13,323 nucleotides of DNA from a virus (IMGVR_UViG_3300030381_000139:1-13323); one strand, 5' to 3'. Positions 389-13,061 are shown, counted from the first letter of the stretch. The notes: a model not told the origin generated them from the letters alone. Numbers and translations are program-made.

Positions 389-406
389 AGTTGCAACGTG
401 GCAACA
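389..406. promoter_or_regulatory. GTTGCAAC-doublet palindrome, variant AGTTGCAACGTGGCAACA
   Basis: Read directly. It ends 17 nt upstream of the ATG at 424, just 5' of the RBS. Confidence 0.85.
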
Positions 407-423
407 GAAAGGAAATGATTATA

Positions 424-570
424 ATGAGAATTAGAGTAATTCAATATGTGGACGGTTTTATAAAATATGATGAGGTTTATGAGGGATTCACATATGATGA
501 GTTAAAGCGTGAAATGGACGAGCTTAAAGGTGAGGCATTTGACTATTATGAAATGGAAATAGGTGAGTAA
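424..570 (+). CDS. Hypothetical small acidic protein (48 aa), the first gene after the left-ITR promoter
   Basis: Translated by hand: MRIRVIQYVDGFIKYDEVYEGFTYDELKREMDELKGEAFDYYEMEIGE. An RBS-like GAAAGGA lies about 10 nt upstream. An in-frame alternative ATG sits at 415. The ORF is below the track's size cut-off. It has 14 acidic and 6 basic residues. Confidence 0.5.
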   Translation: MRIRVIQYVDGFIKYDEVYEGFTYDELKREMDELKGEAFDYYEMEIGE

Positions 571-571
571 C

Positions 572-841
572 ATGAAAATTAATGGTACAGAGGTTAAGGG
601 TATTAAAAAAGCTATAGGTGAATGGAATAAAGATAATACAAATAAAGTTATAATTTATTCACAAGTTCGGTATGAAGTTATAGTAAAATCAAAAAAATTT
701 TATGATAGAGTTATTAATAAAATATACGGAGCTGATTGTTTGTTTGTTGATTTAACTGCTATAATTAGTGATGTGTATCCACCAAATTATAAAATATCTA
801 TGGTAACAATTCAAGCAGTATTAAGAGAATATGTTTTATAA
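572..841 (+). CDS. Hypothetical protein (89 aa from the ATG at 572)
   Basis: This is track ORF 563-841. The ATG at 572 is preceded by AGGTGAG (561-567), so it is preferred over the GTG at 563. A terminator hairpin follows immediately. I recognise no motif. Confidence 0.6.
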   Translation: MKINGTEVKGIKKAIGEWNKDNTNKVIIYSQVRYEVIVKSKKFYDRVINKIYGADCLFVDLTAIISDVYPPNYKISMVTIQAVLREYVL

Positions 842-880
842 AAATATCCCTCGTGAGAAAAAAACTCACGAGGGATATTT
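842..880. terminator. Bidirectional intrinsic terminator between the convergent plus- and minus-strand units
   Basis: A perfect 16-bp stem (aaatatccctcgtgag 842-857 with ctcacgagggatattt 865-880) and an aaaaaaa loop. The flanks are A/T-rich on both sides, so both strands read a hairpin followed by a U-rich tail. Confidence 0.8.
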
Positions 881-1971
881 TACGCTCTTATGCTGATAGT
901 GTGTTTACTTTGTGCATTTATCCAGTTTCTAACAATTTCACCTACTGAATTATCTGCATAGAATACACGATTAAATGTTATTAAATTATTAATAAGTTTA
1001 TGCACGTCTGTTGGCTGTTCTGCTAATGATTGAACGTGTAAGGGGTTTGTATCAGTTTCAAAACTGTATACAACCCTCTTTTTTAATTCGAGGTTTTCCG
1101 TCTTTGTCTGAATATTAAAAAATAGAAATACAGTATTTTCATAATGGATAATATTACAAGCAATAATATCATTGTCAAAGAATATGTAAGCTCTATATAC
1201 AATATTTTCCTTTTTAATTTTAAATGGTGCATGAGGGTAATTCTTAATTTCCCATTGCCCCGTGGTTATCATTTTCAATTGTGGATTATCAAAAGCAAAA
1301 TATTTACTAACTTTTCCAGTCTGTCCTTTGCTGTCTGAGTATTCAAGAGCGAGTGTTAATTCGCTGTCACCATATGTAAATAATTTCAAGTCACCCTGTT
1401 TAATGTCTGAAATTTTACCTAAACCCATTTCGGCAAAGTACGGGCAATACTGGTTTACTGTATTTGCTATCATGTAAATAATAGTGTTATCCCTATCACG
1501 AATAATTGATGATAGCAAGTTAGTAAATGTAACAAATTCATTATTAAGATAAAAAGAACGGGTCATAAATTCGTCAAATAGTATATATTTAAAGTAGCCG
1601 TTGTCTGCACCCTTTGTGCGTTCCCATGCGTTTAGGGAAAAACACTTACAAATACTTTGTTCACTTTTTTCTTCGGTATTTGTATTATATAGGTAAAATT
1701 CTCTATTTTTGTATGTAGTGCTGTTAAACTGACCATTGGATAGTTTTTCAATTAATGCTGAATGTGGTTTAAACAAATTTTGGATATTTTTCGGCATAAT
1801 TTCCTCATCGTATCTTCTAATATATGCCAATCTAAAATTATTTTTGAAATATCCTTCTATTTCCTGTTTACATACTGCGTATGTTTTACCGTTTGAACGC
1901 TGTCCTATAATTAAATTGTATAGTGCGTTTAACTTATTAATCTTTTTTAGTGAATAGTATTCATTTTTCAT
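880..1971 (-). CDS. DNA encapsidation (packaging) ATPase, phi29 gp16-like
   Basis: Walker A IIGQRSNGKTYA, AYIRRY, and Walker B YILFDEF. These match the remembered gp16 layout (VIGARGIGKSYA, IYVRRY, IVFDEF). The start is trimmed to the ATG at 1971 (MKNEYY), which has a GGGAG RBS. It overlaps the polymerase 3' end by 11 nt. Confidence 0.85.
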   Translation of the reverse strand: MKNEYYSLKKINKLNALYNLIIGQRSNGKTYAVCKQEIEGYFKNNFRLAYIRRYDEEIMPKNIQNLFKPHSALIEKLSNGQFNSTTYKNREFYLYNTNTEEKSEQSICKCFSLNAWERTKGADNGYFKYILFDEFMTRSFYLNNEFVTFTNLLSSIIRDRDNTIIYMIANTVNQYCPYFAEMGLGKISDIKQGDLKLFTYGDSELTLALEYSDSKGQTGKVSKYFAFDNPQLKMITTGQWEIKNYPHAPFKIKKENIVYRAYIFFDNDIIACNIIHYENTVFLFFNIQTKTENLELKKRVVYSFETDTNPLHVQSLAEQPTDVHKLINNLITFNRVFYADNSVGEIVRNWINAQSKHTISIRA

Positions 1972-4099
1972 TAAAATCACACTCCCAGAAATTTGTAGCC
2001 AATTCTTGGCTTTTCTCAAATAATGTATGCTCTTTTGCACCGTTACCGAAATTTGTACCACACATTAAATAATATATGAATTGTTCGGATAGTGCCATGT
2101 TATAATCCTGTTCTTCCATGTGTATATAGGTATTTTCTGCCACTTCGGCATAATTTCCCATATAATCTTTTAATACAATTTTGTAGGGGTCATTAATATA
2201 TGTTAATGTATTTTTTCCAGTATATTCTTTAGGTATATACATTTCATTGTCAAAAAATTCAAACGGTTGCAACGTTGCAACTATGTACGGAACGGCACAT
2301 TTTTTATTTAGTCCTGAAACTGTAATATTAAATTTCCCGTCTTGCTCATAAGCGTAACGTTTTGCACCTAATGTCTTAAATTTTGAATAAACTCCCTCAA
2401 AATCCCACACCCCTAAAGGTTTTTCAATGCCTTTAATGGTTTTAGGTTTAGCTAAATTCAAATCAATTTCATAATAGGTCAATGCTTTGTTAATCTCGTC
2501 AATACAATTTTTGTTATATTCATTTATCCAGTTTTCATAATTTTCATAGTTTAAAAATTTTATGCTATCTGTGTCGCAATAAATAACATCGTCATTAATT
2601 TTCAATATACCTTTAAAGAGTTCGTGTCTAGCCCATGCAGTAATCCACACACCCCACTGATATACTAATACTTGTTTTTTATTCTTTATATAATTTTCTT
2701 GTAATGCTTCTGTAATATCTTTCTTTTCCGTGTTCCATTCTTCACCATTAAAAACAATATCATCATTAACGGGGTTGGTCACACACATTCCGAACAAACT
2801 ATTTAACATACCTTTGCCAATTAAATATTCAACTTCTTTTCCCACCACACCTTTTAATGTAGTCTTATCATTGTAAAATTTTAACGCACATTCTATAATT
2901 TGTTTTGGCAAATATCCATAACTTGACGTGTAAAATTTGCCAATTGACAAATGTTCATAAGAATAAAATTGCTCAAAATCCTTAAAATCAATATCCGTAA
3001 AATATGTAAATATCCTATCTGCCGATACAATTCGTCCATTATCAACAACAGCATTATCACAAACAGAACATTTTGAACGTGATATAATATGATTACATTT
3101 TTTAGCAGTGACATTAGTTAATTCAACCTCAAAAACACATGGATAATTTTTAATACAATATCTAAAATCTGCTAAATCTTTTATGTGAGTTTTTGTAAAT
3201 GGTTGCATTGGATATTTTTTTCTTATCATAACAGAGGGATAAGAACTTGTAAAATCGATACTGGCAACATTTTCCAGCACCATTCCTACATACATATAAT
3301 TCGCATGAGTATATCCACCCATGAAACTTTTGTGCAACAGACAAAACAAATCTTTATCAATTGGGGCTATCTTCTTAATTTTTTCTCTATATTTTGGATA
3401 ATATGTATGTTTCTTAATGTAGTTTTGGCAATATTTTCTTACATATCCTGTTTTAGTTAATGGTATTTTTGTTATATCATTATCATTTTTTGCCATTTCT
3501 TCAAGTATAAAATAATGTAATATTTTAACATCATGTTCACAATATCCTAGTTCTTCTTTTGTTAGTGGAGTTTTCCATGTTCTTACAAGTTTATAATTCA
3601 AATCACCTGTTAATTTTTGTATTTTTACGCTTGTCAAGTCTTCCGCTGTTTTTGCCAAATTCATTCCGCTAAGCATTAAACTACATTTCAGGTCAAAACA
3701 ATCATTCATAGTACATTTAATAGGGTGACGTGCATTTCTAGCGAAAACATCTTTGAACCGTTCATGGCCGATTAGAAACTGGAACTCATATCCTAAATTG
3801 TGAATATATATTATAATTCTTCTGTATTCATTTAATTGTAATACTTCTTTTAACTTATTCAATGTAAAGTCGAAATCTTCCCATGTTCTACCATATACAT
3901 AATTTCCATTTAATGCAAACATAAAAATGTACATACACGCTCTTTTGTTTTCACCGTCATAAAATGACGAAGTTTCAATGTCAAACGCAAAAGGGGCGTT
4001 ATAATATTCTATATACTGGTTATCCCTTGTTTTTGTTGTAACAGTTTGTAAATTACTATTTTTAAGAATGTTAAAATCAAAATCATTCACATTTATCAA
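1961..4099 (-). CDS. Family B DNA polymerase, protein-primed type
   Basis: ExoI FDIETSS, ExoII IHNLGYEFQF, ExoIII YCEHDVKIL, motif A DFTSSYPS, motif B KGMLNSLFG, motif C YCDTDSIKF, and KxY GAKRYAY. The start codon at 4099 is TTG, with AAGGGGTG 6 nt upstream. No ATG is available before ExoI. Confidence 0.93.
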   Translation of the reverse strand: MINVNDFDFNILKNSNLQTVTTKTRDNQYIEYYNAPFAFDIETSSFYDGENKRACMYIFMFALNGNYVYGRTWEDFDFTLNKLKEVLQLNEYRRIIIYIHNLGYEFQFLIGHERFKDVFARNARHPIKCTMNDCFDLKCSLMLSGMNLAKTAEDLTSVKIQKLTGDLNYKLVRTWKTPLTKEELGYCEHDVKILHYFILEEMAKNDNDITKIPLTKTGYVRKYCQNYIKKHTYYPKYREKIKKIAPIDKDLFCLLHKSFMGGYTHANYMYVGMVLENVASIDFTSSYPSVMIRKKYPMQPFTKTHIKDLADFRYCIKNYPCVFEVELTNVTAKKCNHIISRSKCSVCDNAVVDNGRIVSADRIFTYFTDIDFKDFEQFYSYEHLSIGKFYTSSYGYLPKQIIECALKFYNDKTTLKGVVGKEVEYLIGKGMLNSLFGMCVTNPVNDDIVFNGEEWNTEKKDITEALQENYIKNKKQVLVYQWGVWITAWARHELFKGILKINDDVIYCDTDSIKFLNYENYENWINEYNKNCIDEINKALTYYEIDLNLAKPKTIKGIEKPLGVWDFEGVYSKFKTLGAKRYAYEQDGKFNITVSGLNKKCAVPYIVATLQPFEFFDNEMYIPKEYTGKNTLTYINDPYKIVLKDYMGNYAEVAENTYIHMEEQDYNMALSEQFIYYLMCGTNFGNGAKEHTLFEKSQELATNFWECDFNEK
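2265..2282. promoter_or_regulatory. GTTGCAAC-doublet palindrome, GGTTGCAACGTTGCAACT, embedded in the DNA polymerase gene
   Basis: Read directly. It encodes VATLQP in the polymerase frame and lies 293 nt upstream of the ATPase start. Confidence 0.8.
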
Positions 4100-4120
4100 C
4101 TATTACACCCCTTTACAAAT

Positions 4121-4138
4121 AGTTGCAACGTTGCAACT
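4121..4138. promoter_or_regulatory. Perfect palindrome AGTTGCAACGTTGCAACT upstream of the DNA polymerase gene
   Basis: Read directly. It lies 21 nt upstream of the polymerase TTG start and overlaps the stop codon of the 183-aa gene. Confidence 0.9.
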
Positions 4139-4688
4139 ATTTTAATGTTTGTAAAAAATTTCGCATTAAGTCATTCATGTCGCTTTCAGTTTTTGCTGAT
4201 TTTTCAAGTGTGTCTAATACTGCATTAATTTCATCATCATTAAACCCTTTTGTTACCATATCACGCACAAACGTTTGAGCCGAATCACTATTAGATAGCT
4301 GTTTTAAAATAGCATTATCTCCATAAAATTCTAGTACACGGTCAACAGTCTCATCTTCAATTTCCAGCCGTAAGGCGTGTTTATGAATAATTTTTTTTGT
4401 GTCAGCCACACTCGTCTGTTGACCTAAAAACTGTCTAATCTGTACATAATGTTTTAACAACTCTGCACGATTTTCGCCTTTCGTGCCTGTTTTAAAAAAG
4501 TTCTTTTTAGTCGAAAATTTGTTCTCTTTTAGAAATGTATTCCATTTCGCCATAATTATAGGGTTTTTCTTGTAATACCCACTTTTTTTCAATTGGCTAA
4601 GGCGTAAATTTGCTTTACGCCCTTGCCTTAAAATCTCCGCTTTCAATTGCTCATTTGTTAAACCGCTTGCAAAATGTTCATTCATCAT
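4137..4688 (-). CDS. Hypothetical 183-aa protein, a positional candidate for the terminal protein
   Basis: It lies immediately upstream of the polymerase, as gene 3 does in phi29. The N-terminal half is basic (RQGRKANLRLSQLKKSGYYKK) and the C-terminal part is acidic (DDEINAVLDTLEKSAKTESDMNDL). I see no recognisable sequence similarity. Confidence 0.3.
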   Translation of the reverse strand: MMNEHFASGLTNEQLKAEILRQGRKANLRLSQLKKSGYYKKNPIIMAKWNTFLKENKFSTKKNFFKTGTKGENRAELLKHYVQIRQFLGQQTSVADTKKIIHKHALRLEIEDETVDRVLEFYGDNAILKQLSNSDSAQTFVRDMVTKGFNDDEINAVLDTLEKSAKTESDMNDLMRNFLQTLK

Positions 4689-6772
4689 ACAAATACACCA
4701 CCTTGTAACATATTTACTATATATTGTCTTTCACTGTCCGTACATCTGAAATTAATTTCAGGATTGCTAACAACTGTAAACCCCTTAAAATCTGATAGTT
4801 TTCCAGTTTTTTCACATGCAAAACCTATGGTTCTTCCGTAATTATCAGGTACATTTAAAATCGGTCTGTCAATTATGAAATAACAATGTTGAGGTTGCCA
4901 CGTTGCAACCGACGGAGAACTTGCACTCGCCTCTTGGTAATTAGTACCAGTTGCAAAGCCACTGTATAATTTTTCTGCACTGCTAACCATACCGCCAACA
5001 TTTCCGCTAGCGATTGACGATACACCACCAACAGCACCACCGACTACATTTCCAATAACTGTACTAGCATAACTAGCACTGTCGTTTCCAGTCATTGGAA
5101 TCGATACACCTACTACTCCATTTCTGTAAATAAAAGGTATATCGTCTTTAAATACTATGGCAGTTCCTGCACCTGTGGTATAGTCAACTATCATTTTAAC
5201 CGATATTCTATGCCCCATAAATTCAGCCGTTGAAACTGGTACAACCCCGATATATGGTATATATAATTGTGCTGTTGTGTATGGTTCGTAATCTAGGAAA
5301 TTTTTGAATTTAGTAAAAAATGTGCATTCACCTAAATCAATTAAACTGTTTACTTTTTCTGTTAATTTGATACCTGATACCCCTGTATCAGTTCTGCCAA
5401 TAACGATATTTTCTGCCCTTGTAGCAGAATTTTTCAAAGCAACGTTAAACGGAAAAAGTCGTAAGTCAATAATACCATTCATGGGGTTTTCGCCCATTAA
5501 TGCTAAACCTTTTACAATTTCTTGAAATTTAGTTTCGTCAGCATTCCACAAAAAATCAGCTAAATTTTTTACAGTATTTGCATTAACTGCAAAACTCCGA
5601 TTGAAAACATTTACATTAGACAGTGTAGGTTTATTCAAATCTATTTTGTCGGTGTAGTTATTCGGGTCTGTATTACTGATACCATTAAATGGATTATCCT
5701 GCCAATCTGTAGGAGTATCCCACGTTGTTTGAATTTGTTTTGCATTTTCTGCGCCCTCAGAATACTTCCCTGTAATTTTTCCGTCGTCTGATATAATACC
5801 GCAATATATACCATTTTGGTTTAGATTTTCCTGCTTTGCTAAATTTGCCGAAAATGTGTAATATGTTCCCATTCTGCTATATAATTTATGAATGTTTTCG
5901 ATACTATAATCAAAAACTGGTAAATATCCCGTATACACGTCACTACCAATAGCGAAATATATTTTATTCCACAAATCAATAAAACCTAAATTCGCATAGT
6001 AATAAGTATAAGTATTAAAATAATTAACGTTTAAATCCTCACACCCATAAATAAATGTGTTCAAAATAGCGTGGTCTCCGTCTGAACTGCCAAAAAATAG
6101 TGCTCCGTAAATGTCATAATTATCCACTATAGAATTTTTTGAATATGTGCAAAACGGTATTATATTAAAACCTTGACAGCGTTGTCTGTCACCAATCTCC
6201 GCTCTAAAATAATATGGAAGTGCGTATATCCCTACGATATGATGTGTATTTTTATATGTGGTTTCAAATGTTTGTACGTCTACGTCAATTCTATCACTAA
6301 ATGACGATACGTCACCCATATCAGAATATTCAAATCTATACGCTATCACTCGAACCAAAAAAAGAAAATCTTTTAATTTATACTCAGTGCCAAAATAATA
6401 GCCTAAATTATCACTCTTGGTACTATCATATGCCATTCTATAATATGTAGTCTTAGTTTGGTTAGCAATTACGGGGCGATTTTGTAATGTATCTTCAGTA
6501 TTTAATCTGCCAAACATAGCGCATACACCGCTCGGAGCATTTGTGCCCTTTACAAATTCAGATTGATGAGGTTTATTATATCCACTTCGCACAAAATAAT
6601 CGTCAGGGGGGTTAAAATCAACCGCATAAAAAATCGTTTCATCAATGGGGTTGTTTAATTGTAATTTACCATTATCAATTAATTCTTTCATTGACTGTGT
6701 GGTTTTTATTCCTTTTAGATACTCTAATGATATACTCCTATCACTGGAATAAATTTCTTTATTTAACTTCAT
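4685..6772 (-). CDS. Tail knob / distal tail tube protein candidate, phi29 gp9-like
   Basis: A 695-aa protein in the structural block. It has a Gly/Ala/Ser/Val-rich hydrophobic stretch (VIGNVVGGAVGGVSSIASGNVGGMVSS) followed by a C-terminal domain. This resembles the remembered gp9 arrangement (GGGISAGASAAGGSALGMASS, then about 110 aa). Confidence 0.55.
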   Translation of the reverse strand: MKLNKEIYSSDRSISLEYLKGIKTTQSMKELIDNGKLQLNNPIDETIFYAVDFNPPDDYFVRSGYNKPHQSEFVKGTNAPSGVCAMFGRLNTEDTLQNRPVIANQTKTTYYRMAYDSTKSDNLGYYFGTEYKLKDFLFLVRVIAYRFEYSDMGDVSSFSDRIDVDVQTFETTYKNTHHIVGIYALPYYFRAEIGDRQRCQGFNIIPFCTYSKNSIVDNYDIYGALFFGSSDGDHAILNTFIYGCEDLNVNYFNTYTYYYANLGFIDLWNKIYFAIGSDVYTGYLPVFDYSIENIHKLYSRMGTYYTFSANLAKQENLNQNGIYCGIISDDGKITGKYSEGAENAKQIQTTWDTPTDWQDNPFNGISNTDPNNYTDKIDLNKPTLSNVNVFNRSFAVNANTVKNLADFLWNADETKFQEIVKGLALMGENPMNGIIDLRLFPFNVALKNSATRAENIVIGRTDTGVSGIKLTEKVNSLIDLGECTFFTKFKNFLDYEPYTTAQLYIPYIGVVPVSTAEFMGHRISVKMIVDYTTGAGTAIVFKDDIPFIYRNGVVGVSIPMTGNDSASYASTVIGNVVGGAVGGVSSIASGNVGGMVSSAEKLYSGFATGTNYQEASASSPSVATWQPQHCYFIIDRPILNVPDNYGRTIGFACEKTGKLSDFKGFTVVSNPEINFRCTDSERQYIVNMLQGGVFV
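4893..4910. promoter_or_regulatory. GTTGCAAC-doublet palindrome variant GGTTGCCACGTTGCAACC, embedded in the tail-knob gene
   Basis: Read directly. It encodes VATWQP and lies 204 nt upstream of the 183-aa gene start. Confidence 0.75.
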
Positions 6773-7269
6773 ATGTTTAAACCCCCATTTTCTGCTGTTC
6801 CTTGATTACTTCCGCCACCTGCCACATTTAGCACAAAATTGTAACTATTTACCGTGGCACTGTCAAGATTAAAATCTCCCCCAGTAAATTCAATTACTTT
6901 CATTTCCTTATTACCTTTTAATGGTAACATTGTATCAGGGATATATGTGCTTCCAATATTTTCATTTCTAGTTACTAGAAATTCACTAGATAGCAATGCG
7001 GTTGAATAGGTAAATATATCAAATTCACATTGTAAAATAATAGTTTCTGCACTCTCAACGTCTGCCGAAATTATATGATAAAACCTATCAAAAAATGGTA
7101 TATATGTCATATTTGCGTTAAACGTTTCAGACGTACAAAATAATCTTATACGGGGTGTAAAACTGTTCATAGTATCCAATATTTCACAATTATACTCAAC
7201 TGCGTTTGTTACTGTTTTTTGAATAGTTCGTACATCTTGCGAACATTGATACGTTGTTATAATTGGCAT
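6769..7269 (-). CDS. Hypothetical virion protein (166 aa), possibly tail-tube or collar-associated
   Basis: It sits between the capsid and knob genes, with an ATGA overlap onto the knob gene. The segment MTYIPFFDRFYHIISADVESAETIILQCEFDIFTY loosely resembles the N-terminal pattern of phi29 tail-tube proteins as I remember it. Confidence 0.3.
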   Translation of the reverse strand: MPIITTYQCSQDVRTIQKTVTNAVEYNCEILDTMNSFTPRIRLFCTSETFNANMTYIPFFDRFYHIISADVESAETIILQCEFDIFTYSTALLSSEFLVTRNENIGSTYIPDTMLPLKGNKEMKVIEFTGGDFNLDSATVNSYNFVLNVAGGGSNQGTAENGGLNI

Positions 7270-7288
7270 TTTTTTCTCTCCTCAATAT

Positions 7289-7306
7289 AGTTGCAACGTT
7301 GCAACT
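7289..7306. promoter_or_regulatory. Perfect palindrome AGTTGCAACGTTGCAACT upstream of the 166-aa gene
   Basis: Read directly. It lies 19 nt upstream of the ATG at 7269. Confidence 0.9.
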
Positions 7307-7312
7307 TTTTAG

Positions 7313-7330
7313 GGTTGCAACGTTTTAACT
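7313..7330. promoter_or_regulatory. Degenerate second copy GGTTGCAACGTTTTAACT, forming a tandem pair with 7289-7306
   Basis: The first octamer is intact and the second has 2 mismatches. Centre-to-centre spacing to the neighbouring site is 24 bp. Confidence 0.6.
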
Positions 7331-7339
7331 ATCATTTTG

Positions 7340-8485
7340 TTATACTGTTTTTGGTGCATCTGCTACTATAAATACAACACAATTTTCCATTGTATCATTG
7401 AAATAGCTAGCGTCATACTTGTAAAAATAGTTCCAGTATTCGCCCTTTGGATTGTAAATGCTAGTTACTCTCGGATTAGCATTGCATACCATACATGCGT
7501 CACGGTCAAAGATAGTTCCAATAATACCTGCCTGAGATACCTTGTTACCGCTAGCAGTTGTAACATCAATTTTGGAAATTTCTGCAAAATCGAACGTTTC
7601 GCCTGTTCCACTGCCCTGCCAGTATGGCACCTCTGAATAACCTGTCAATTTTACAAGGTCATTGTGGAATGTGTCACTCTGTAGGTAAACCTCAGCCGTA
7701 TTTACAAATCTTGACAAAAGCACCATTTTCATGTCACTTTCTGGGGTAAAAGTTGTGTAACCGCCGTCATTGAACAGCATTGAGGGACGTTGAATGTACT
7801 TGATGTACTCCTTGATTTTTCCAATAGCGTACCTAAGGAAATCCTTATCCATAAGAGCGTGGTCTGCTTTCAGGGTCTGAGTAAACTCTGTGTTATACAT
7901 TGTCAAAAGATTAACAACATTGTTATTGCTGTGTATCTTCTCTGCAATAAGATTATTAACAGTTCGTGTTTTAAGTATATCATTTGACAAAGTGAGTTTA
8001 AAACGTATTCTGTTTTCAATCATAGCAAAAAAGCTATTCATTTCAGCAGGAGAATTAAATGCTGACTTGACCTGCATTTCTGTAAATGACATCTGCACTT
8101 CATATGTTACCTTGCTGTCATAAAATTTTGACTGCACGTCAGGGGCTGTAAATACGAATGGGTCATAACTCTGACCGTTTGTCAATTTCCAACTGTCATT
8201 CTCGACTGCGTCAGGCATTTCACAGCGAACTTTTTGCATTGCCGAGCCGTACTCCCATGAATCCGTGAGTATATCGGGGGCAGTTGAATTGTAAACACGG
8301 TCAACAAAAATCATTCTGCCGACTTTATCAATCAACTTGCGAACGTAGTTGTCAACGTCCGTGGCTTCCAAAATCTGCTTGCCCATGTCGACAACATTGG
8401 TCAAATCTTCCGTTGTTACGGCACTTTCGCCGATTATTTCCTGCTGTACATCATTTAGTATTGTAGCAATTTGTGTAACTTTCAT
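7340..8485 (-). CDS. Major capsid protein, phi29 gp8-like
   Basis: Size is 381 aa. The C-terminal motifs TIFDRDACMVCNAN and YNPKGEYWNYFYKY match the remembered gp8 VLVDKDWFMVYDN and RNPRGLYWNYYYHV. It has a strong RBS and relatively high GC. Confidence 0.8.
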   Translation of the reverse strand: MKVTQIATILNDVQQEIIGESAVTTEDLTNVVDMGKQILEATDVDNYVRKLIDKVGRMIFVDRVYNSTAPDILTDSWEYGSAMQKVRCEMPDAVENDSWKLTNGQSYDPFVFTAPDVQSKFYDSKVTYEVQMSFTEMQVKSAFNSPAEMNSFFAMIENRIRFKLTLSNDILKTRTVNNLIAEKIHSNNNVVNLLTMYNTEFTQTLKADHALMDKDFLRYAIGKIKEYIKYIQRPSMLFNDGGYTTFTPESDMKMVLLSRFVNTAEVYLQSDTFHNDLVKLTGYSEVPYWQGSGTGETFDFAEISKIDVTTASGNKVSQAGIIGTIFDRDACMVCNANPRVTSIYNPKGEYWNYFYKYDASYFNDTMENCVVFIVADAPKTV

Positions 8486-8772
8486 TATATTGTACCTCTC
8501 TTTATTTCCTCACCCTTTAGGCGATAATAGTGATTTAGTTTTTTCTTTAACGTGTTATCAATCCCTTTAAAACATGAAAATTTATCTTTGATAACATTTT
8601 CATATTTTAGCCAATCGGCAAGACACAACCAAAACACGAAATCATCACTATATAAAATATAGTCCTTTAAATCTTCCTTATTTTGGAGTGTATCTACTAC
8701 TACTTTTAATACGACTGCTCTTGCAAGATTTACATAATTTTCCGCATATGTTGGACTTCTCACTTTTTCCAT
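8485..8772 (-). CDS. Hypothetical 95-aa protein. It occupies the position of a scaffolding protein, but its composition is not typical of a coiled coil.
   Basis: The start is trimmed to the ATG at 8772 (MEKVRSP), which has a GAGAGGAAAA RBS. The track start at 8799 reads through the palindrome. The stop overlaps the capsid ATG by 1 nt (TAATG). Confidence 0.5.
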   Translation of the reverse strand: MEKVRSPTYAENYVNLARAVVLKVVVDTLQNKEDLKDYILYSDDFVFWLCLADWLKYENVIKDKFSCFKGIDNTLKKKLNHYYRLKGEEIKRGTI

Positions 8773-8791
8773 TATTTTTCCTCTCTTTTCT

Positions 8792-8809
8792 AGTTGCAAC
8801 GTTGCAACT
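8792..8809. promoter_or_regulatory. Perfect palindrome AGTTGCAACGTTGCAACT upstream of the 95-aa gene
   Basis: Read directly. It lies 19 nt upstream of the ATG at 8772. Confidence 0.9.
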
Positions 8810-8811
8810 TT

Positions 8812-9489
8812 TTAATATACACCAATTAGAATTATATCTGCTATTGCTTTAGCAAACATATCAACAACAGAAAACATTGCTAGTTCTCGTTCTGACTGTA
8901 TCATCTGTTGTGATGTAGTAACTCCTATATTACCGCTTCTTGTAAATTCATGCACGGTTTTTTCATTTCCTGCCGTGGTAACTGTAGTGTCTATATCCTG
9001 CGTGTCGGTATTAGTTCCTGTATTAGTGGTTTTGCTATCATTAATAAAACTGTCCGATTTGTCAAAAGTTGTTTTTCCAGTTGTAATTGACGTATCAAGC
9101 CCTACGGTATTTGTATTTTTACCTTTGTTTGTTTGCGTGATGTTTGGCGTTCTTGTGTCAGTTCCTTTTTCTGTCATGGAATAGTTCTCAATGGGATTAT
9201 ATTCCAATGATAGAGTATCAACTAACTTGTCGTATTCGTACTTATGCGATTTACCATATAATGCTATATAGTCGCTTGCCTGTTTTACCATATTGGTATT
9301 ACTTGTCGTATTTTCATTATCATAATACTTATAAAAATCACGTTCGCCGAACTTATTTGCAAAATAGAAAAACATTTCATCAGGCGACAAAATTGCGAAT
9401 AATTTTAACTCTTTTGATATTTTATCAAAAATAGTTTCTATAGTAGGAAATACTTCAACCCATTCATTCAGCGTTATCATCTTTTTCAT
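8812..9489 (-). CDS. Lower collar / proximal tail-tube connector candidate (phi29 gp11-like by position)
   Basis: It immediately follows the portal gene and overlaps it by 26 nt. The central region is rich in Thr, Asn and Lys, which would fit long beta-hairpins. It carries EYNPIENY and RSGNIGVTTSQQMIQSERE motifs that I associate with collar proteins; this is unverified. Confidence 0.45.
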   Translation of the reverse strand: MKKMITLNEWVEVFPTIETIFDKISKELKLFAILSPDEMFFYFANKFGERDFYKYYDNENTTSNTNMVKQASDYIALYGKSHKYEYDKLVDTLSLEYNPIENYSMTEKGTDTRTPNITQTNKGKNTNTVGLDTSITTGKTTFDKSDSFINDSKTTNTGTNTDTQDIDTTVTTAGNEKTVHEFTRSGNIGVTTSQQMIQSERELAMFSVVDMFAKAIADIILIGVY

Positions 9490-10417
9490 TGTCGGTCTCC
9501 TCTTCTGTTGGTTCTTCCTCTGTAGGCTCTTCCTCAGTTGTTACTAAATCTTCCCATTCAGGGGAAATCTCAACACTAATATTAGTATCAAACATAGCGT
9601 TAATTTTATCAACTGCCTGCTGACGGTTATTTAGCATATTAACAACATTTACAAATAATGCACTATCATTAATATTAACCTCTGCTGTGTTTAGCCGTTC
9701 ACGTTTCATGTTAAAATTTGCATTTACGCCAATGGAATTGTAAAAATTAGCCAACCAAAATTGATACGTTTCAATCGTCTGTTGTAGGATTGTAGCAACA
9801 CTTGTATTATCTGCCATTTTTATTGGTGAAATACAATTTAATATTGTGTCGTCAATCATAACAGCAGGATTACCGTTATATAACTGTTTTAGAACTTTTT
9901 CCCCTGCAATTCTTACGGTATCATCTTTGCACAAAAATGCTGTCTGCACTCTGCCGTTTTTCAATGCACTGGAAATTGTAACCACGCAATCAGCTAACAT
10001 ATTAGCGGTTAGTGTCAGTATAGGGTATAAACCTCCTGTCATTGTTTGTGTGGGGTATTTATCCGTATCACTGTTAAACATTGCCACTCCGTCAACGTCT
10101 AACTTTACAATTTTACTTCCTAAAATTGGATTTGCAATAACAAATTCTGTAGGTAAATAATATTCGTTAGGATAACCGCTATAATTTCCATTTAGTGCAT
10201 ATAGCTTTCCCTTGAACTCGGTGAAAACAACTCTTCCTGTTACAAATAACCAAAAGTTCATTATTTGTTCATCAATGGTGTCGGGTAGATTTTTCCATGT
10301 AAACATATTGATAACACGATTTAACAGCATTTTGTAATAATAATTTGTCAATTGTGTTTTGTCTATGTTTGAAACTCCGAACTCACTCCAACTCCACGGC
10401 TTTATTTTTGAACCCAT
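9464..10417 (-). CDS. Portal (head-tail connector) protein, phi29 gp10-like
   Basis: FTWKNLPDTID, LYNGNPAVMI and GVNANFNMKRERLNTAEV match the remembered gp10 FEWENLPPTIN, YEGNAPVIF and GIKNANLEKKERMVTDEV. The start is trimmed to the ATG at 10417 (MGSKIKPW), which has a GAAAGGGGTGAA RBS. The C-terminal tail is acidic. Confidence 0.85.
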   Translation of the reverse strand: MGSKIKPWSWSEFGVSNIDKTQLTNYYYKMLLNRVINMFTWKNLPDTIDEQIMNFWLFVTGRVVFTEFKGKLYALNGNYSGYPNEYYLPTEFVIANPILGSKIVKLDVDGVAMFNSDTDKYPTQTMTGGLYPILTLTANMLADCVVTISSALKNGRVQTAFLCKDDTVRIAGEKVLKQLYNGNPAVMIDDTILNCISPIKMADNTSVATILQQTIETYQFWLANFYNSIGVNANFNMKRERLNTAEVNINDSALFVNVVNMLNNRQQAVDKINAMFDTNISVEISPEWEDLVTTEEEPTEEEPTEEETDNEKDDNAE

Positions 10418-10436
10418 TTTTTCACCCCTTTCAATC

Positions 10437-10454
10437 GGTTGCAACGTGGCAACT
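10437..10454. promoter_or_regulatory. GTTGCAAC-doublet palindrome variant GGTTGCAACGTGGCAACT upstream of the portal gene
   Basis: Read directly. It lies 19 nt upstream of the ATG at 10417. Confidence 0.85.
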
Positions 10455-10483
10455 TTTGTTACCACGTTCTGCCGATTTGTTAT

Positions 10484-10822
10484 TTACTGTATCTGAATTG
10501 AATAGAACTCGCCGTTAGTTGACTTGCCCTTTACAAATCTTACCTTGACTTCTTCGCCGTCGTTAAGGCAGTCGCTGAGAATATCTGCCAACTCTTCCAT
10601 ATGGTCTAGGCAGACCTTTGACGAGAACCCAAACACGCCGATGTCGGTAGCTATGTAGCCAATATCACACGGCTTCTTATCTCTATCCAAGCCCCCATTT
10701 TCTACCACTGCACAACCTGAAACAGTGTGCCACTCTACCGCTTCTGCTGTCTTGATTGAAATACTTCCGCTCTTTGCGTTAAATATGTCCTTTTTTGTCA
10801 TGTTTACGTTAAATCCGTTCAT
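10484..10822 (-). CDS. Single-stranded DNA-binding protein candidate, phi29 p5-like
   Basis: The protein is 112 aa. Its C-terminus EEVKVRFVKGKSTNGEFYSIQIQ resembles the remembered p5 ETFKVKVVQGTSSKGNVFFSLQLSL, and the preceding segments can also be aligned by eye. Confidence 0.55.
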   Translation of the reverse strand: MNGFNVNMTKKDIFNAKSGSISIKTAEAVEWHTVSGCAVVENGGLDRDKKPCDIGYIATDIGVFGFSSKVCLDHMEELADILSDCLNDGEEVKVRFVKGKSTNGEFYSIQIQ

Positions 10823-10992
10823 GTTTAAAACCTCTTTTCATGTTTTGTAATTTGTTCAATATTGTATGACCGTAATATATAATAGTTATGTACGTTAGAT
10901 AACAATAGCGGTTTAGCGCTCTTATTTTATAAATGTTAATTATTATCAATTTGCCTGTTGTATTGTTAAATGCTCACATAACGTATTATCTG

Positions 10993-11661
10993 TTAAAAAT
11001 TAACTATTTTGTCAAGAATAGCTTCATAAAGGGCGTTGATTAGCTTTGCCCCTGCTATTCCATTTTCTTTTTTTTTCAGCTTCCGCAGAATCTCATTTGT
11101 AGCCTTTTCAGTGCCTTTTCCGTATATGCCGTTGAAGTCAACACCTGTACTAATTATTTTGCAGGTTTTTGCAAGTTTTAACATCATTTTGTATGCGTAA
11201 ACACCTGCATTATTATCTCCACGCTTTAAGCCTGCAGTATCAAAAGCATTGCCCTTATATCTCAGCACCCCTAAAAAGTTATGGTATGTATGGCGTTCTT
11301 TTGCTACAAAATTATGTCCGTTGTAATTCTGGTCATAACTGTAAAAATAACCTATAGTACCCTCACCTGTTGCAATTGAGATATGCCCGATATTGTCAGA
11401 TGATTTAAACACACATATATCCCCTTGCATTGGTACAAATTCTGGGGTATTTGCAATTTTTGTAAAATTCTTTACAAGAGCCGATACCTCATTGAAGCGT
11501 GTGAAATACTGTTGTGCATTGAAATTGTATGGATAATATGTAAAAACGTTAAAACATTTCTGCATATAGTCGTTTACTAAATCACAACACTGATACGGAT
11601 AAACTCCGTCAAACTCTATTGACTTCCCAAGATTTCTGGAAATATATTCCTTAAATGTCAT
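10993..11661 (-). CDS. Endolysin: N-terminal CHAP domain plus a C-terminal PG_binding_1-like domain
   Basis: A CHAP-like Cys context YPYQCCDLVN and His context NIGHISIA. The C-terminal GDNNAGVYAYKMMLKL...DFNGIYGKGTEKATNEILRKL fits the peptidoglycan-binding repeat pattern. It is adjacent to the holin-like genes. Confidence 0.8.
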   Translation of the reverse strand: MTFKEYISRNLGKSIEFDGVYPYQCCDLVNDYMQKCFNVFTYYPYNFNAQQYFTRFNEVSALVKNFTKIANTPEFVPMQGDICVFKSSDNIGHISIATGEGTIGYFYSYDQNYNGHNFVAKERHTYHNFLGVLRYKGNAFDTAGLKRGDNNAGVYAYKMMLKLAKTCKIISTGVDFNGIYGKGTEKATNEILRKLKKKENGIAGAKLINALYEAILDKIVNF

Positions 11662-11867
11662 TTTTCTTTTACCTCTAAATCTGTTAATCTATGGTTGATT
11701 ACCTTTATCTGTTCTTCAACGACTGGTAAACGCCGAGCAAAATTGTTATGTTCTGCCACTCGGTTTTCCAGTTGTTGCACTCTGTACTCTGTCAACTTAA
11801 ACCCCGAATAACTTCCGATACACGTGCCTATCAGGGATAGCACTGCAACAATTATGGTACTCCACAT
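11658..11867 (-). CDS. Holin-like or lysis accessory membrane protein (N-terminal TM plus coiled coil, BhlA/UviB-like architecture)
   Basis: TM segment IIVAVLSLIGTCIGSYSGF followed by a heptad-like RVQQLENRVAEHNNF...IKVINHRLTDLE. It has an ATGA overlap with the endolysin gene. Confidence 0.5.
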   Translation of the reverse strand: MWSTIIVAVLSLIGTCIGSYSGFKLTEYRVQQLENRVAEHNNFARRLPVVEEQIKVINHRLTDLEVKEK

Positions 11868-12028
11868 TATACTTTACCATTTTTTGAGAACTGAGTGCCG
11901 AAGTAAAAAGCAATGACCGTTGTAAATACTGTCATATACTGTTCACTTGTTATCTTCCCTGCTAGTGATAGTAGACAGAAAACAATCGTTAGTAGGATTG
12001 TTACGATTGATTTTATTGTTATCTTCAT
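11867..12028 (-). CDS. Holin candidate (53 aa, two TM segments)
   Basis: The start is trimmed to the ATG at 12028, with a GGGAGGA RBS 6 nt upstream. TM segments are IVTILLTIVFCLLSLAG and YMTVFTTVIAFYFGT, with a short charged C-terminus. It lies upstream of the endolysin gene. Confidence 0.6.
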   Translation of the reverse strand: MKITIKSIVTILLTIVFCLLSLAGKITSEQYMTVFTTVIAFYFGTQFSKNGKV

Positions 12029-12030
12029 TC

Positions 12031-12258
12031 TTATCCTCCCATTGTCGAACACCCCATTGTTGGCAAACCGCTTTCATACTTATATATAGCGGTTATATCG
12101 CCCAAACTTACCTTAACCCTATAAGGGTACCGGTCTTTTTTAGGGTACTGAAATTCTGAAATCCCTTGGGGCTGTATATGCCCTTTTTCACAGTGTTTAG
12201 CGTCGCCTTCATTTTCAAAACCCGCACCGCATACATCACAAACAAAAAGTGTTTTCAT
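12031..12258 (-). CDS. Small zinc-finger / zinc-ribbon protein (75 aa), function unknown
   Basis: FVCDVCGAGFENEGDAKHCEKGH gives C-x2-C-x11-H-x4-H with a Phe three residues after the second Cys, which is a C2H2-like layout. It has a good RBS, AAGGAAGG. Confidence 0.6.
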   Translation of the reverse strand: MKTLFVCDVCGAGFENEGDAKHCEKGHIQPQGISEFQYPKKDRYPYRVKVSLGDITAIYKYESGLPTMGCSTMGG

Positions 12259-12280
12259 TTTTATTTACCTTCCTTTCTAT

Positions 12281-12307
12281 CACACTGAGTAATTAATACT
12301 CAGTGTG
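12281..12307 (-). promoter_or_regulatory. Perfect 11-bp stem, 5-nt loop hairpin spanning the stop codon of the 225-aa gene. It has no U-tract.
   Basis: cacactgagta 12281-12291 pairs with tactcagtgtg 12297-12307, with loop attaa. The TAA stop (12295-12293) lies in the loop. Confidence 0.6.
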
Positions 12308-12970
12308 CTTTGTTGTAATATCAAAACTCATGTTAATATTTTCGATATTTTCTCTTTTTTCCATAAGCTTATTGACCCACATTGACAGTTCTTTAAGATT
12401 TTCAAAATGTGCCAAATCTCTCGGATTTTCCTCTTCATTAGTTGCGACGTTGCAACTCTCAGCGGTTACCGCTTCCTCAACTTCCTCTTCTATTTCCCCG
12501 AGTTCCTCTTCCTTTTCCTCAACCTCGGCTTCCTCAGTGTCCTTCATTTCAAGTGCCTTGGTGTTGCTGACAAACTCTCTCAACTGCTTTATCGTCATAT
12601 CGGGTGTAATATTGCCGTTTTCGATAACCTCGTTATCAAGGGTTACAAGGGTTGCAAGCTGATTGAATGTAAACATTTCAGCGTTGAGCGGTGAGTTAAT
12701 GTCAGTTATGAACTTATCAGATACTCTTCTCATACGGCTTGCAGTTGACTTTGTGATGTTAAACATTGTCATGGTATAATCGCCGAAGTCACCGAAATCG
12801 TCCTTCCATGTACCATTGTTGTATATCTCCGCAAGGTCAGTGCAGATAGCCTTCTTGTTATCCTCTACGTTTACCATTCTTGTAAAGATACGATGAGTGC
12901 TTTCTTTAAGTGCGTTGTTCTTGAATTCGTTCATAATGTTTGCGCTCTCTGATTTAATAATGTTCTCCAT
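12293..12970 (-). CDS. Early protein (225 aa) with a putative HTH DNA-binding region and a long acidic segment
   Basis: It is the first gene after the right-ITR promoter. GTWKDDFGDFGDYTMTMFNITKSTASRMRRVSDKF followed by FTFNQLATLVTL resembles the DUF3102/ParB-type HTH layout, by eye only. The acidic run is EEAEVEEKEEELGEIEEEVEE. Confidence 0.4.
   Translation of the reverse strand: MENIIKSESANIMNEFKNNALKESTHRIFTRMVNVEDNKKAICTDLAEIYNNGTWKDDFGDFGDYTMTMFNITKSTASRMRRVSDKFITDINSPLNAEMFTFNQLATLVTLDNEVIENGNITPDMTIKQLREFVSNTKALEMKDTEEAEVEEKEEELGEIEEEVEEAVTAESCNVATNEEENPRDLAHFENLKELSMWVNKLMEKRENIENINMSFDITTKHTEY
12440..12457. promoter_or_regulatory. GTTGCAAC-doublet palindrome variant AGTTGCGACGTTGCAACT, embedded in the 225-aa gene
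   Basis: Read directly. It encodes CNVATN and lies 181 nt upstream of the zinc-finger gene start. Confidence 0.75.
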
Positions 12971-12985
12971 GGTAATTTCCTCTCT

Positions 12986-13003
12986 AGTTGCAACGTTGCA
13001 ACT
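12986..13003. promoter_or_regulatory. Perfect palindrome AGTTGCAACGTTGCAACT upstream of the 225-aa gene, at the inner edge of the right ITR
   Basis: Read directly. It lies 15 nt upstream of the ATG at 12970 and about 50-70 nt downstream of the predicted right-ITR TSS. Confidence 0.9.
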
Positions 13004-13018
13004 TTAAAAATTTTATTT

Positions 13019-13052: not shown

Positions 13053-13061
13053 TCTATATAT

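Follow-up and report, generated by a model that had tools for sequence, protein, structure and literature searches.

The window analysed here is the whole 13,323-nt stretch of IMGVR_UViG_3300030381_000139, a 13-kb phage in which one palindrome, AGTTGCAACGTTGCAACT, recurs ten times, mostly just ahead of genes. The initial annotation offered three readings of this repeat: operators for a DNA-binding protein, RNA hairpins, or hairpins extruded on a displaced single strand during replication. This raises the question of what recognizes the palindrome, and whether it does so in DNA or in RNA. The ten copies probably constitute a parS/KorB-like operator network for a ParB-type helix-turn-helix (HTH) protein of 225 residues encoded by the phage itself. 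Comparative evidence is decisive for this reading, namely the co-occurrence of private palindromes with homologues of the protein, the presence of parS elsewhere in the lineage, the predicted fold, and the layout of the sites.

The palindrome and its placement

The ten copies of AGTTGCAACGTTGCAACT comprise four perfect ones and six with one to three mismatches (Table 1). No match occurs in 200 dinucleotide-preserving shuffles, and a search allowing up to four mismatches returns the same ten sites and no more, with 0.08 in the shuffles. The palindrome network is thus real, with ten sites against none expected. Every one of the window's 15 GTTGCAAC octamers falls within one of the ten sites, so the unit is the 16-18-mer and not the single octamer. 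The recurrent asymmetric variant (T12G/A7C) is genuine, and its copy at 10437 has a complementary upstream arm.

Table 1. Copies of the palindrome and associated features in the window
Feature	Coordinates	Strand	Context
Two tandem sigma-70-type early promoters, left end	258..331	+	TTAACA-17-TATAAT; TTGACA-17-TGnTATACT
Motif copy, 2 mismatches, T12G	389..406		Left-end early transcript 5' leader; ATG 424 lies 17 nt on
Motif copy, 1 mismatch	2265..2282		Within DNA polymerase gene; encodes VATLQP
Motif copy, perfect	4121..4138		DNA polymerase start (4099) 21 nt on; palindrome extended to 4117-4142
Motif copy, 3 mismatches, A7C	4893..4910		Within 695-aa tail gene; encodes SVATWQP
Motif copy, perfect	7289..7306		166-aa gene (start 7269) 19 nt on
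Degenerate second copy, 1-3 mismatches	7313..7330		Pairs with 7289-7306 in a ~18-bp sense-RNA hairpin, 7287-7332
Motif copy, perfect	8792..8809		19 nt ahead of 95-aa (scaffold-like) gene (start 8772); capsid gene next
Motif copy, 2 mismatches, T12G on + strand	10437..10454		Portal gene (start 10417) 19 nt on
Upstream arm, AACGUGGUAAC on sense strand	10459..10469	-	Pairs with left half of 10437 motif
First right-end gene, 225 aa, candidate cognate binder	12293..12970	-
Motif copy, 1 mismatch	12440..12457		Within 225-aa gene itself; encodes SCNVAT
Motif copy, perfect	12986..13003		Right-end early transcript 5' leader; 225-aa gene (start 12970) 15 nt on
Mirrored early promoter pair, right end	13062..13135	-

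Re-measured distances agree that six copies precede start codons by 15-21 nt, with a Shine-Dalgarno sequence between motif and start codon at each. The A-rich 5' flank described on the sense strand is also real and conserved, with variable length. The three in-gene copies lie further from the next gene: the 2265 copy is 203 nt upstream of the GTG start (2061) of an ATPase ORF, or ~293 nt if that ORF starts at ATG 1971, the 4893 copy is 204 nt upstream of a 183-aa gene, and the 12440 copy, of which several relatives have a perfect version, precedes a 75-aa gene by 181 nt. One palindrome therefore stands near many operon starts, including that of the 225-aa candidate regulator.

Near-consensus sigma-70-type promoters are found two per end (258-286 and 303-331; 13135-13107 and 13090-13062), and the left-end pair is conserved in relatives. 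As originally placed, the motif lies downstream of these terminal promoters at both ends, spanning roughly +52 to +69 relative to the proximal one. The left motif is directly ahead of a 92-aa gene in most relatives; the inserted 48-aa gene that starts at 424 belongs to this genome alone, a correction to the initial annotation. An intrinsic terminator identity was rejected, as no U-tract follows the motif on the sense strand. On the antisense strand the claimed lack of a U-tract does not hold, as several copies are followed by T-runs and have a terminator-like score. A bidirectional terminator is located at 841-880.

Conservation in close relatives

All ten sites are retained and syntenic in 18 relatives (~85% nucleotide identity), against the absence or random placement that the initial annotation had named as a refutation. 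Nucleotide diversity is 0.007-0.034 in the motif core versus 0.10-0.21 in the flanks. Within the three genes that contain a copy, third-codon-position diversity is 0.02-0.09 in the motif versus 0.24-0.38, for example 0.021 versus 0.239 over the whole gene for the 2265 copy and 0.040 versus 0.376 for the 4893 copy. As judged by these diversities, the site network is under strong sequence-level selection, synonymous positions included. The 16-nt core shows no wobble or compensatory drift, whereas the flanking arms do drift. Structure alone is therefore not the constraint, and the drift-free core fits recognition of the DNA by a putative binding protein. Sites are also gained: L002 has acquired a perfect copy through a 24-nt insertion downstream of a consensus sigma-70-type promoter, and L036 and L021 contain extra genes between duplicated motif units.

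Private palindromes and parS in distant relatives

Distant relatives comprise 63 loci whose capsid proteins are 43-62% identical. Different multi-copy palindromes are found in this set with the same placement, just 5' of ribosome-binding sites. Relatives bearing a homologue of the 225-aa protein carry GTCCAAACGTTTGGAC (L082, 14 copies), GTTCGGACGTCCGAAC (L108, 10 copies), TCTAGTTGACTAGA (L081), TTAGTTGACTAA (L065, 15 copies), TTCCGGTCAACCGGAA (L078, 6 copies), TCCGTTYRAACGGA (L070, 6 copies), TTCCGTTTAAACGGAA (L124, 5 copies), TCTAATCAATTAGA (L072, 4 copies), TTTAAACGTTTAAA (L059, 4 copies), and GTGCAAWTTGCAC (L089, 3 copies). These palindromes are mostly beside ribosome-binding sites; those of L089 are all in the terminal regions and not beside such sites. 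A network of at least three copies is present in 9 or 10 of 11 homologue-positive genomes versus 10 of 53 homologue-negative ones (Fisher p = 1.3e-4 to 1.1e-5). The homologue-positive exceptions, L059 with a weak network and L103 with no perfect one, count against the 225-aa protein as binder. L070 and L124, which encode the closest homologues compared (39% identical), have almost the same site. In the window, L108, L065, L081, and L124, the gene for the homologue has a site immediately before it. Across the genomes compared, the 225-aa family and private palindromes co-occur throughout the lineage.

The exact host parS, TGTTTCACGTGAAACA, is present in at least 17 of the 63 distant loci, in up to five copies, and homologue-negative relatives often carry it, which shows that the lineage uses ParB-type sites. 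Related phages have either a protein-plus-palindrome pair of their own or the host ParB site in its place. The window contains no match to parS (TGTTNCACGTGAAACA) at up to three mismatches, and its half-site GTTGCAAC is one base longer than GTTTCAC. The initial annotation knew of no equivalent element in phi29-like phages, yet equivalents exist: host Spo0J binds phi29 DNA at five parS sites (PMC2731898), and many relatives of the window carry canonical parS.

The candidate binding protein

The 225-aa protein is composed of a helical domain (residues ~20-143) with a predicted HTH (..FNITKSTASRMRRVSDKF..), an acidic linker, and a C-terminal helix. Its AlphaFold model has a pLDDT of 75-89 over residues ~20-143, with a shallow alignment behind it. 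The top 13 Foldseek matches in the PDB are the DNA-binding domains of Spo0J-parS, ParB-parS, and Noc-NBS complexes, with marginal E-values (0.06-2), probabilities of 0.4-1.0, and TM-scores of 0.3-0.5; KorB and VirB are also among the matches. Predicted viral structures that match the model are DUF3102 and ParB-like proteins. The modelled fold thus resembles the DNA-binding domains of ParB, Spo0J, Noc, and KorB. A profile search against PDB sequences gave no match, and neither did Pfam ParBc, with only ~20-40 residues ahead of the helical domain. By this predicted layout, the protein is without the N-terminal ParB/Srx CTPase domain, and its genome is without a ParA partner, as no ParA-type ATPase is found among the window ORFs.

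DUF3102 is the name that the protein carries in NR. The Pfam DUF3102 profile (PF11300) does not match it even at E up to 10, and an HMM built for the family matches a bona fide DUF3102 protein of L042 (E = 2.8e-4). The exact motif core lies within the DUF3102-type genes of L042 and L148 in the same frame, and degenerate copies lie within the L137 and L151 homologues. In B. subtilis, a parS site is located inside spo0J. An A-x-R-[MFY] recognition-helix signature is common to the five proteins that accompany AGTTGCAACGTTGCAACT and absent from homologues with other palindromes.

The same motif outside the lineage

In no cultured phage or plasmid was AGTTGCAACGTTGCAACT found. The identical 18-mer is dense in unrelated ~17-kb TerL/portal contigs, a 26-kb contig, and Treponema MAG contigs. 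No homologue of the 225-aa protein was found in the sequence of these unrelated motif-dense elements, of which one ~17-kb contig is fully covered. This density where no homologue was seen counts against the 225-aa protein as binder. In the ~17-kb contigs ATG often follows the motif immediately, a zero spacing that the operator model does not predict, and in these unrelated phages the whole stop-to-ATG spacer consists of the motif. Motif-ATG spacing is 0 nt in at least six genes of L037, L025, and L004. One perfect copy in L039 sits between a pair of convergent genes, at a point where no gene starts.

Proposed mechanism

The operator reading, in the ParB-parS format suggested initially with the 225-aa protein as a candidate, is favoured by comparative and structural evidence, with the binder itself predicted. 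The 16-18-bp palindromes would be the DNA sites of a dimeric phage protein, the 225-aa product, whose early expression would come from the consensus promoters of the two terminal repeats. Binding at about +52 in both early leaders may provide autoregulation or early shut-off. The protein is also predicted to bind ahead of the portal, scaffold/capsid, tail, and polymerase modules, where the sites occupy short spacers, and at the three in-gene sites ~180-200 nt ahead of the next gene. Bound sites could then block or silence transcription in the manner of KorB or a stoperator, controlling read-through in the leftward 12-kb array of genes; such roadblocks may divide the 12-kb unit into temporal modules, as the initial annotation suggested. 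A close alternative effect of binding would be ParB-like tethering, condensing, or segregation of the genome, for which phi29 uses the Spo0J of its host and parS. It is not obvious why a lytic phage should have an early protein repress its late modules, given their timing, which counts against the operator reading.

RNA hairpins and other explanations

The sites are transcribed, so they also fold as hairpins beside Shine-Dalgarno sequences. The bare motif has a folding energy of -7.2 kcal/mol, and at three sites flanking arms lengthen the transcribed palindrome to 11-18-bp hairpins, with energies of -12.5 (4121), -18 (10437), and -21 kcal/mol (7289/7313). The 10437 motif and its upstream arm form an 11-bp stem with an A4-8 loop; on the sense strand this stem is paired in 176 of 176 cells, and 7 of its 11 pairs vary, via G·U only, where the antisense equivalent would be A·C. 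The 7289/7313 hairpin is conserved in 19 genomes and shows a compensatory U-A to G-C change together with a sense-strand G·U in the L009/L018/L023/L026 clade, while an extension pair at 4121 occurs across relatives as A-U, G-C, or sense-strand G·U. Such changes, confined to the sense strand, imply an RNA-level function that could be the primary one, and they indicate that an added role, such as processing, stability, or ribosome-binding-site accessibility, operates at these three sites. It is unlikely that the element is primarily an RNA hairpin 5' of the Shine-Dalgarno sequence in polycistronic mRNA, with the DNA palindrome incidental, serving as a processing site like those of T7 RNase III, a 5'/3' stabiliser, or a translational operator for an RNA-binding factor. 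The ribosome-binding-site adjacency kept in relatives with other palindromes and the motif-filled spacers of the 17-kb phages would suit such an element. However, the arms alone bear out the hairpins proposed at the outset, since the core never drifts as they do; rare variants of the in-gene copies show no sense-strand bias, and the outermost palindrome pair is not maintained. Single sites have stems of 7-11 bp, the 7-bp ones too short for RNase III, and only 7289/7313 (~18 bp) and 10437 (11 bp) come near the ~20-bp irregular hairpin of that enzyme. The long 10437 hairpin breaks the motif's own hairpin, so no single RNA shape is common to the sites, and no Rfam 15 covariance model matches them at E up to 1. 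The exact host parS in many relatives is a DNA site, and co-occurrence with a ParB-fold HTH protein also points to DNA.

Three further explanations fare worse against the operator reading. The motif could be a promoter that spans about -18 to -1, so that transcripts begin at its 3' edge; host RNA polymerase and an extra factor would use it, and the mRNAs would have short Shine-Dalgarno-bearing leaders here but none in the 17-kb phages; both motif-ATG spacings (0 and 15-21 nt) and the position of the in-gene copies agree with this, TGcAACGTT is in our own reading an extended -10 that retains A-11 and T-7, and the replication genes, ~9 kb from the only strong promoters, would need internal ones. 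It is nevertheless improbable, because selection on sense-strand RNA structure upstream of the motif implies that the upstream sequence is transcribed, sigma-70-type promoters precede the motif at either end as well as the copy newly gained by L002, nothing starts at the L039 copy, and relatives have parS at the same positions; moreover, a perfect palindrome has no direction, and the phage encodes no RNA polymerase or sigma factor. A highly improbable view makes the motif a recombination linker or mobile palindrome, its identical copies being junctions for gene-cassette swaps from which conservation follows. The genes flanked by duplicated units in L036 and L021, the 48-aa insertion in the window, the L002 insertion, and a Cluster O mycobacteriophage gene flanked by a 17-bp palindrome (PMC4351075) are of this kind, but second-order selection cannot yield site-by-site purifying selection that extends to synonymous positions, the phage encodes no recombinase, and short repeats of any kind are expected to recombine incidentally. 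Hardly credible, finally, are hairpins on the displaced strand in protein-primed replication or a host REP-like repeat. Palindromes could fold in single-stranded DNA, where G·T would be tolerated on the strand with the G·U pattern, but specific support for this third initial reading is absent; the motif also occurs in elements without protein priming, and in the half that holds 4121 displacement would affect the other strand. The REP-like repeat, which the initial annotation had named as a refutation, is itself refuted by 11 exact matches in 185,579 species genomes, close to what chance would give, with two of the 11 contigs coming from one MAG and both being mobile-element contigs.

Comparison with known systems

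One close analogy is the KorB-OB (and KorA) regulon of IncP plasmid RK2, in which a single palindrome, present in ~10 copies across the replicon and near operon starts that include KorB's own, is bound by the element-encoded ParB-family protein KorB. KorB differs in having a CTPase domain and the partners IncC and KorA; the window protein, a predicted binder, has in its ~225 aa only a DNA-binding domain, an acidic linker, and a C-terminal helix. The stoperators of Cluster A mycobacteriophages (L5 gp71) are likewise many copies of a short site in the short intergenic spacers of a compact genome, and are proposed to stop elongation once phage repressor is bound. Unlike the perfect dyads of the window, they are asymmetric 13-mers that keep one orientation to transcription and are recognized by a monomer; the phage there is temperate, and the window has no lysogeny genes. 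Cluster O mycobacteriophages contain more than 30 invariant copies per genome of a 17-bp palindrome, TGTTCGGNNNCCGAACA, in intergenic regions or near gene 5' ends (PMC4351075). It resembles the window motif in this placement and in the occasional gene between two copies, but differs in sequence, host, and phage type, and no cognate protein is proposed there.

Like the window phage, phi29 is a small protein-primed podovirus with a 16-bp CG-centred palindrome in several copies, and a ParB-type HTH binder, known there, is predicted here. The window differs in its palindrome, in its phage-encoded candidate binder without a CTPase domain or ParA, and in sites that tile the gene starts. It can be suggested tentatively that the DUF3102 proteins form a large and uncharacterised group of ParB-type DNA-binding domains that stand alone, each paired with a private 12-18-bp palindrome of fast-switching specificity. 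If so, one such protein and a site at nearly every gene start would make, in tiny protein-primed phages, a minimal genome-wide control or hitch-hiking system that acts as both DNA operator and mRNA hairpin. That unrelated phages and a mobile element have the site as well would then mean cross-talk, through shared specificity or eavesdropping on a regulator.

The RNase III hairpins of T7 are sequence-related hairpins between genes, upstream of ribosome-binding sites in long polycistronic transcripts, as in the window. Most window sites differ from them in their 7-11-bp stems and sequence-invariant core, while the 7289/7313 hairpin, with ~18 bp and an internal loop, approaches the T7 size.

Distribution and Conservation of the Palindrome

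The palindrome AGTTGCAACGTTGCAACT is an 18-bp element found ten times in the window at three mismatches or fewer, where none is expected (200 shuffles), which bears out the genome-wide network proposed in the initial annotation. Allowing four mismatches adds no copy in the window, and the octamer half-unit GTTGCAAC does not occur there outside the ten sites. The proposed placement 5′ of ribosome-binding sites also holds: six copies end 15–21 nt 5′ of a start codon, and a Shine-Dalgarno sequence lies in the interval. Of the other four, three lie within genes; the fourth is a degenerate partner in tandem. The in-gene copies are nearly equidistant from the next starts, which may be coincidence.

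All ten sites are syntenic across 18 close relatives (IMG/VR genomes 84–90% identical to the window), the conservation that the annotation had asked of related genomes. Nucleotide diversity is 0.007–0.034 in the 16-nt core versus 0.10–0.21 in the neighboring flanks. At third codon positions of the polymerase, tail, and 225-aa genes, it is 0.02–0.09 in the core versus 0.24–0.38 gene-wide. The motif sites are under selection.

Candidate Binding Protein

The 225-aa protein, the first product of the right-end genes, is the putative binder of the motif. It is named DUF3102 (domain of unknown function) in NR, and the Pfam DUF3102 model falls below threshold on the same protein. Its AlphaFold model, built from a shallow alignment, has a pLDDT of 75–89 over residues ~20–143. 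The best 13 PDB matches to the model are all ParB/Spo0J/Noc DNA-binding domains, several complexed with parS or NBS DNA, with KorB and VirB lower among the matches (probabilities up to 1.0, E-values 0.06–2). DUF3102 and ParB-like proteins also match the model in a library of predicted viral structures, and the family profile has no match among PDB sequences.

A capsid-protein profile retrieved 63 distant relatives (L059–L121; capsid 43–62% identical), many of which contain their own multi-copy dyad, mainly right 5′ of ribosome-binding sites. Homologues of the 225-aa protein are present in 10 of these loci and in L124, the sole new genome found in a search of viral contigs for further family members; these are phages with private palindromes. 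Networks of at least three copies are present in 9 or 10 of the 11 homologue-positive genomes versus 10 of the 53 homologue-negative ones (Fisher p = 1.3e-4 to 1.1e-5), and several of the latter ten are networks of the host ParB site parS. In the window, L108, L065, L081, and L124, the gene for the 225-aa protein or its homologue has the site immediately 5′. The L070 and L124 proteins are 39% identical, and the two genomes share nearly the same site.

Private palindromes, each a multi-copy dyad particular to one relative
Locus	Palindrome	Copies
L082	GTCCAAACGTTTGGAC	14
L108	GTTCGGACGTCCGAAC	10
L081	TCTAGTTGACTAGA	7 within 1 mismatch; 15 if centre variable
L065	TTAGTTGACTAA	15
L078	TTCCGGTCAACCGGAA	6
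L070	TCCGTTYRAACGGA	6
L124	TTCCGTTTAAACGGAA	5
L072	TCTAATCAATTAGA	4
L059	TTTAAACGTTTAAA	4
L089	GTGCAAWTTGCAC	3, all in terminal regions

Exact host parS, TGTTTCACGTGAAACA, is present in at least 17 of the 63 distant loci at 1–5 copies each; in L073 it overlaps the -35 element of the terminal promoters and also lies 5′ of ribosome-binding sites. Other repeats occur in individual relatives: TTCCACGYRCGTGGAA in L105 and L110 (five copies), GTTAGAAWWTTCTAAC in the ends of L084 (four copies), and CCAGTTGACTGG in L069. No 225-aa homologue was found in the parS loci or in L105, L110, L084, and L069, the last of which is an incomplete contig.

The exact core is also found within genes that are DUF3102 members, bona fide or likely, in L042 (54% G+C) and L148 (38% G+C), at one position and with the reading frame shared (..VATLQ..), and homologues in L137 and L151 contain degenerate core copies within the gene. 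The window, L042, L148, L137, and L151 proteins have A-x-R-[MFY] in common in the putative recognition helix, which is STASRMRR in the window protein, and homologues associated with other palindromes are without this signature. Because the core lies inside DUF3102 genes and A-x-R-[MFY] is shared, we think that a widespread DUF3102 sub-type recognizes this palindrome, a reading of the sequences that leaves unaccounted for a group of 17-kb phages without a detected binder.

Occurrence in Unrelated Elements

The exact 18-mer is dense in elements unrelated to the window phage. Contigs of ~17 kb with terminase, portal, and capsid genes (47–50% G+C) contain 14–17 copies, often touching the ATG with no spacer; RNA pairing at the outer motif positions in these phages has no strand bias. 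A 26-kb contig with genes for PolA and a primase-helicase is likewise dense in the 18-mer, as are two Treponema MAG contigs, one with integrase, topoisomerase, and relaxase genes and the other with ParA and replication genes; this MAG is a lead on the host at most. Searches for shared proteins by blastp (E < 0.5), by phmmer queried with the DNA-binding domain, and by the HMM of the family found no 225-aa homologue in these elements, with one 17.6-kb contig wholly covered and the rest partly. Pfam searches of their ORFs found no ParB and no DUF3102. The motif-containing Treponema locus L048 holds a plasmid-like module with a ParA-type ATPase, a 325-aa HTH protein, RepL/HTH_36, and two SSBs; alignment of the HTH protein to the family with hhalign is not significant.

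The motif is not a generic host repeat of the REP type, an identity that the initial annotation had weighed: the exact 18-mer is found in 11 stretches among 185,579 species genomes, approximately the chance number, and single matches in Rhodococcus and Nocardia are attributed to chance. Scans with 14- and 15-mer cores gave for the most part chance singletons among the matches listed. The motif has no matching Rfam family, its network is absent from isolate phages and plasmids, and astrithr, Phanie, and AD70P2, which are cultured relatives, lack any repeat of this kind. The whole window had no megablast match among 50,697 phage records, and the motif string does not occur in the literature searched. 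In our own comparison, sigma-54, ECF-sigma, cre/LacI, and PurR-box sites are unfit in spacing or bases. To our knowledge, integron attC, IHF, and DnaA-box readings offer no lead.

RNA Structure at the Motif Sites

The motif alone has a folding energy of -7.2 kcal/mol. At the 10437 site, an arm lying upstream and the left motif half build an 11-bp stem with an A4-8 loop, and across 16 distinct sequences the sense strand keeps pairing in 176 of 176 cells. Seven pairs vary, each through G·U only, which equates to A·C on the opposite strand. The 7289 and 7313 copies fold jointly into one hairpin of ~18 bp in 19 of 19 genomes, with a compensatory U-A to G-C change and a sense-strand G·U in one clade, and at 4121 the sense strand has A-U, G-C, or G·U at an extension pair. 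From these sense-strand patterns it follows that the sites are transcribed and that the hairpin matters.

The RNA-hairpin reading of the initial annotation thus stands in part. The hairpin is a real second layer, with processing, stability, and ribosome-binding-site access as candidate roles. Structure alone, however, cannot account for the core, because the core shows no G·U or compensatory drift, strand bias is absent from the in-gene copies, and hairpin shapes vary from site to site.

Proposed Function and Alternatives

The motif network is probably a set of parS/KorB-like DNA sites recognized by an HTH protein that the phage itself encodes, of ParB type and DUF3102 kind, a reading in which we place moderate confidence. 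ParB-parS-format operators are the best supported of the readings first proposed, through homologue co-occurrence and the ParB-like model, from which the binding function is inferred. The 225-aa protein would bind at +52 of either early leader and ahead of every gene module, with autoregulation and gating of read-through as the predicted result. A close alternative is that such binding would instead serve tethering or segregation, by analogy with phi29, which uses parS sites with host Spo0J (PMC2731898). Both roles are predictions. Whereas phi29/Spo0J is a single case, the window's lineage appears to use ParB-type sites, host or private, as a general strategy.

Promoter, recombination-linker, and replication-hairpin functions are each less likely. 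At both window ends and at a gained copy in L002, the motif lies 3′ of a promoter: each end has two near-consensus sigma-70-type promoters, with the motif ~52 nt 3′ of the proximal one, and L002 has an extra perfect copy through a 24-nt insertion near 10785, just 3′ of the conserved promoter TTAACA-16-GATAAT. A linker would fit the accessory-gene junctions, which the motif marks: inserted genes in L036 and L021 sit between duplicated motif units, and the window 48-aa gene is likewise a motif-associated insertion.

If the DUF3102-operator reading is true, DUF3102 gains a testable role as a ParB-like site-specific DNA binder, and about a dozen natural protein-site pairs become a possible source for a recognition code. 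Its chief value would be to tie an uncharacterized protein family to natural cognate sites within a lineage that systematically uses ParB-type sites: 11–14-kb phages, abundant in metagenomes, that tile their genes with parS or private sites. Such compact one-protein, one-site networks are potential orthogonal regulators, and constraint at both the DNA and RNA levels on one 18-mer is unusual dual coding in a regulatory site.

Genome Organization

The window is an entire linear genome of 13,323 bp with an inverted terminal repeat perfect over 36 nt. Homology between the ends reaches well past this repeat, to about 340–400 nt in all with one ~69-nt indel, and takes in both promoters, the motif, and a GTTAAGG...CCTTAAC stem at the leader start. 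Two small rightward genes occupy the left end, and all remaining genes run leftward from the right end in the order: 225-aa protein, 75-aa zinc-finger-like protein, two small membrane proteins, CHAP lysin, 112-aa protein, portal, second 225-aa protein, 95-aa scaffold-like protein, major capsid protein, 166-aa protein, 695-aa tail protein, 183-aa protein, family-B DNA polymerase, and packaging ATPase. The Astrithrvirus group of 11–12-kb podoviruses is 42–47% identical to the window capsid and polymerase. Relatives have two convergent arms, in contrast to the single leftward array of the window.

Coordinates of features in the window and in aligned or retrieved loci
Feature	Position	Strand	Description
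Motif copies	389, 2265, 4121, 4893, 7289, 7313, 8792, 10437, 12440, 12986		named by start
In-gene copy 12440			181 nt before start 12258
In-gene copy 4893			204 nt before start 4688
In-gene copy 2265			203 nt before GTG 2061
225-aa gene	12970-12293		putative binder
75-aa gene	12031-12258	-	N-terminal C-x2-C-x11-H-x4-H, resembles zinc finger; weak matches only (DUF7128, phrog_32948)
Leftward array	880-12970		12 kb; starts with 225-aa and lysis genes, replication genes at far end
Homologous ends	1-400, 12920-13323
Promoter TTAACA-16-GATAAT	10942-10969	-	sigma-70-like, conserved, 5′ of 112-aa gene
Hairpin AAATATCCCTCGTGAG...CTCACGAGGGATATTT	841-880	both	17-bp stem, about -28 kcal/mol either strand, T-runs both sides
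TAAAGTGCTAAAG repeats	52-72, 105-117; mirror 13219-13272		three copies per terminal repeat
T run in L036	~10850 (aligned to window)		~50 T in lysin-to-112-aa spacer
L048 module	183-2071 (of L048)		plasmid-like

The T run in L036 is probably an assembly or sequencing artefact. Separating the rightward genes from the leftward ATPase gene, the 841-880 hairpin makes a textbook bidirectional terminator, and it has weak His_leader matches in Rfam. The TAAAGTGCTAAAG repeats, which number seven in the relative L061, are possibly origin- or terminal-protein-related.
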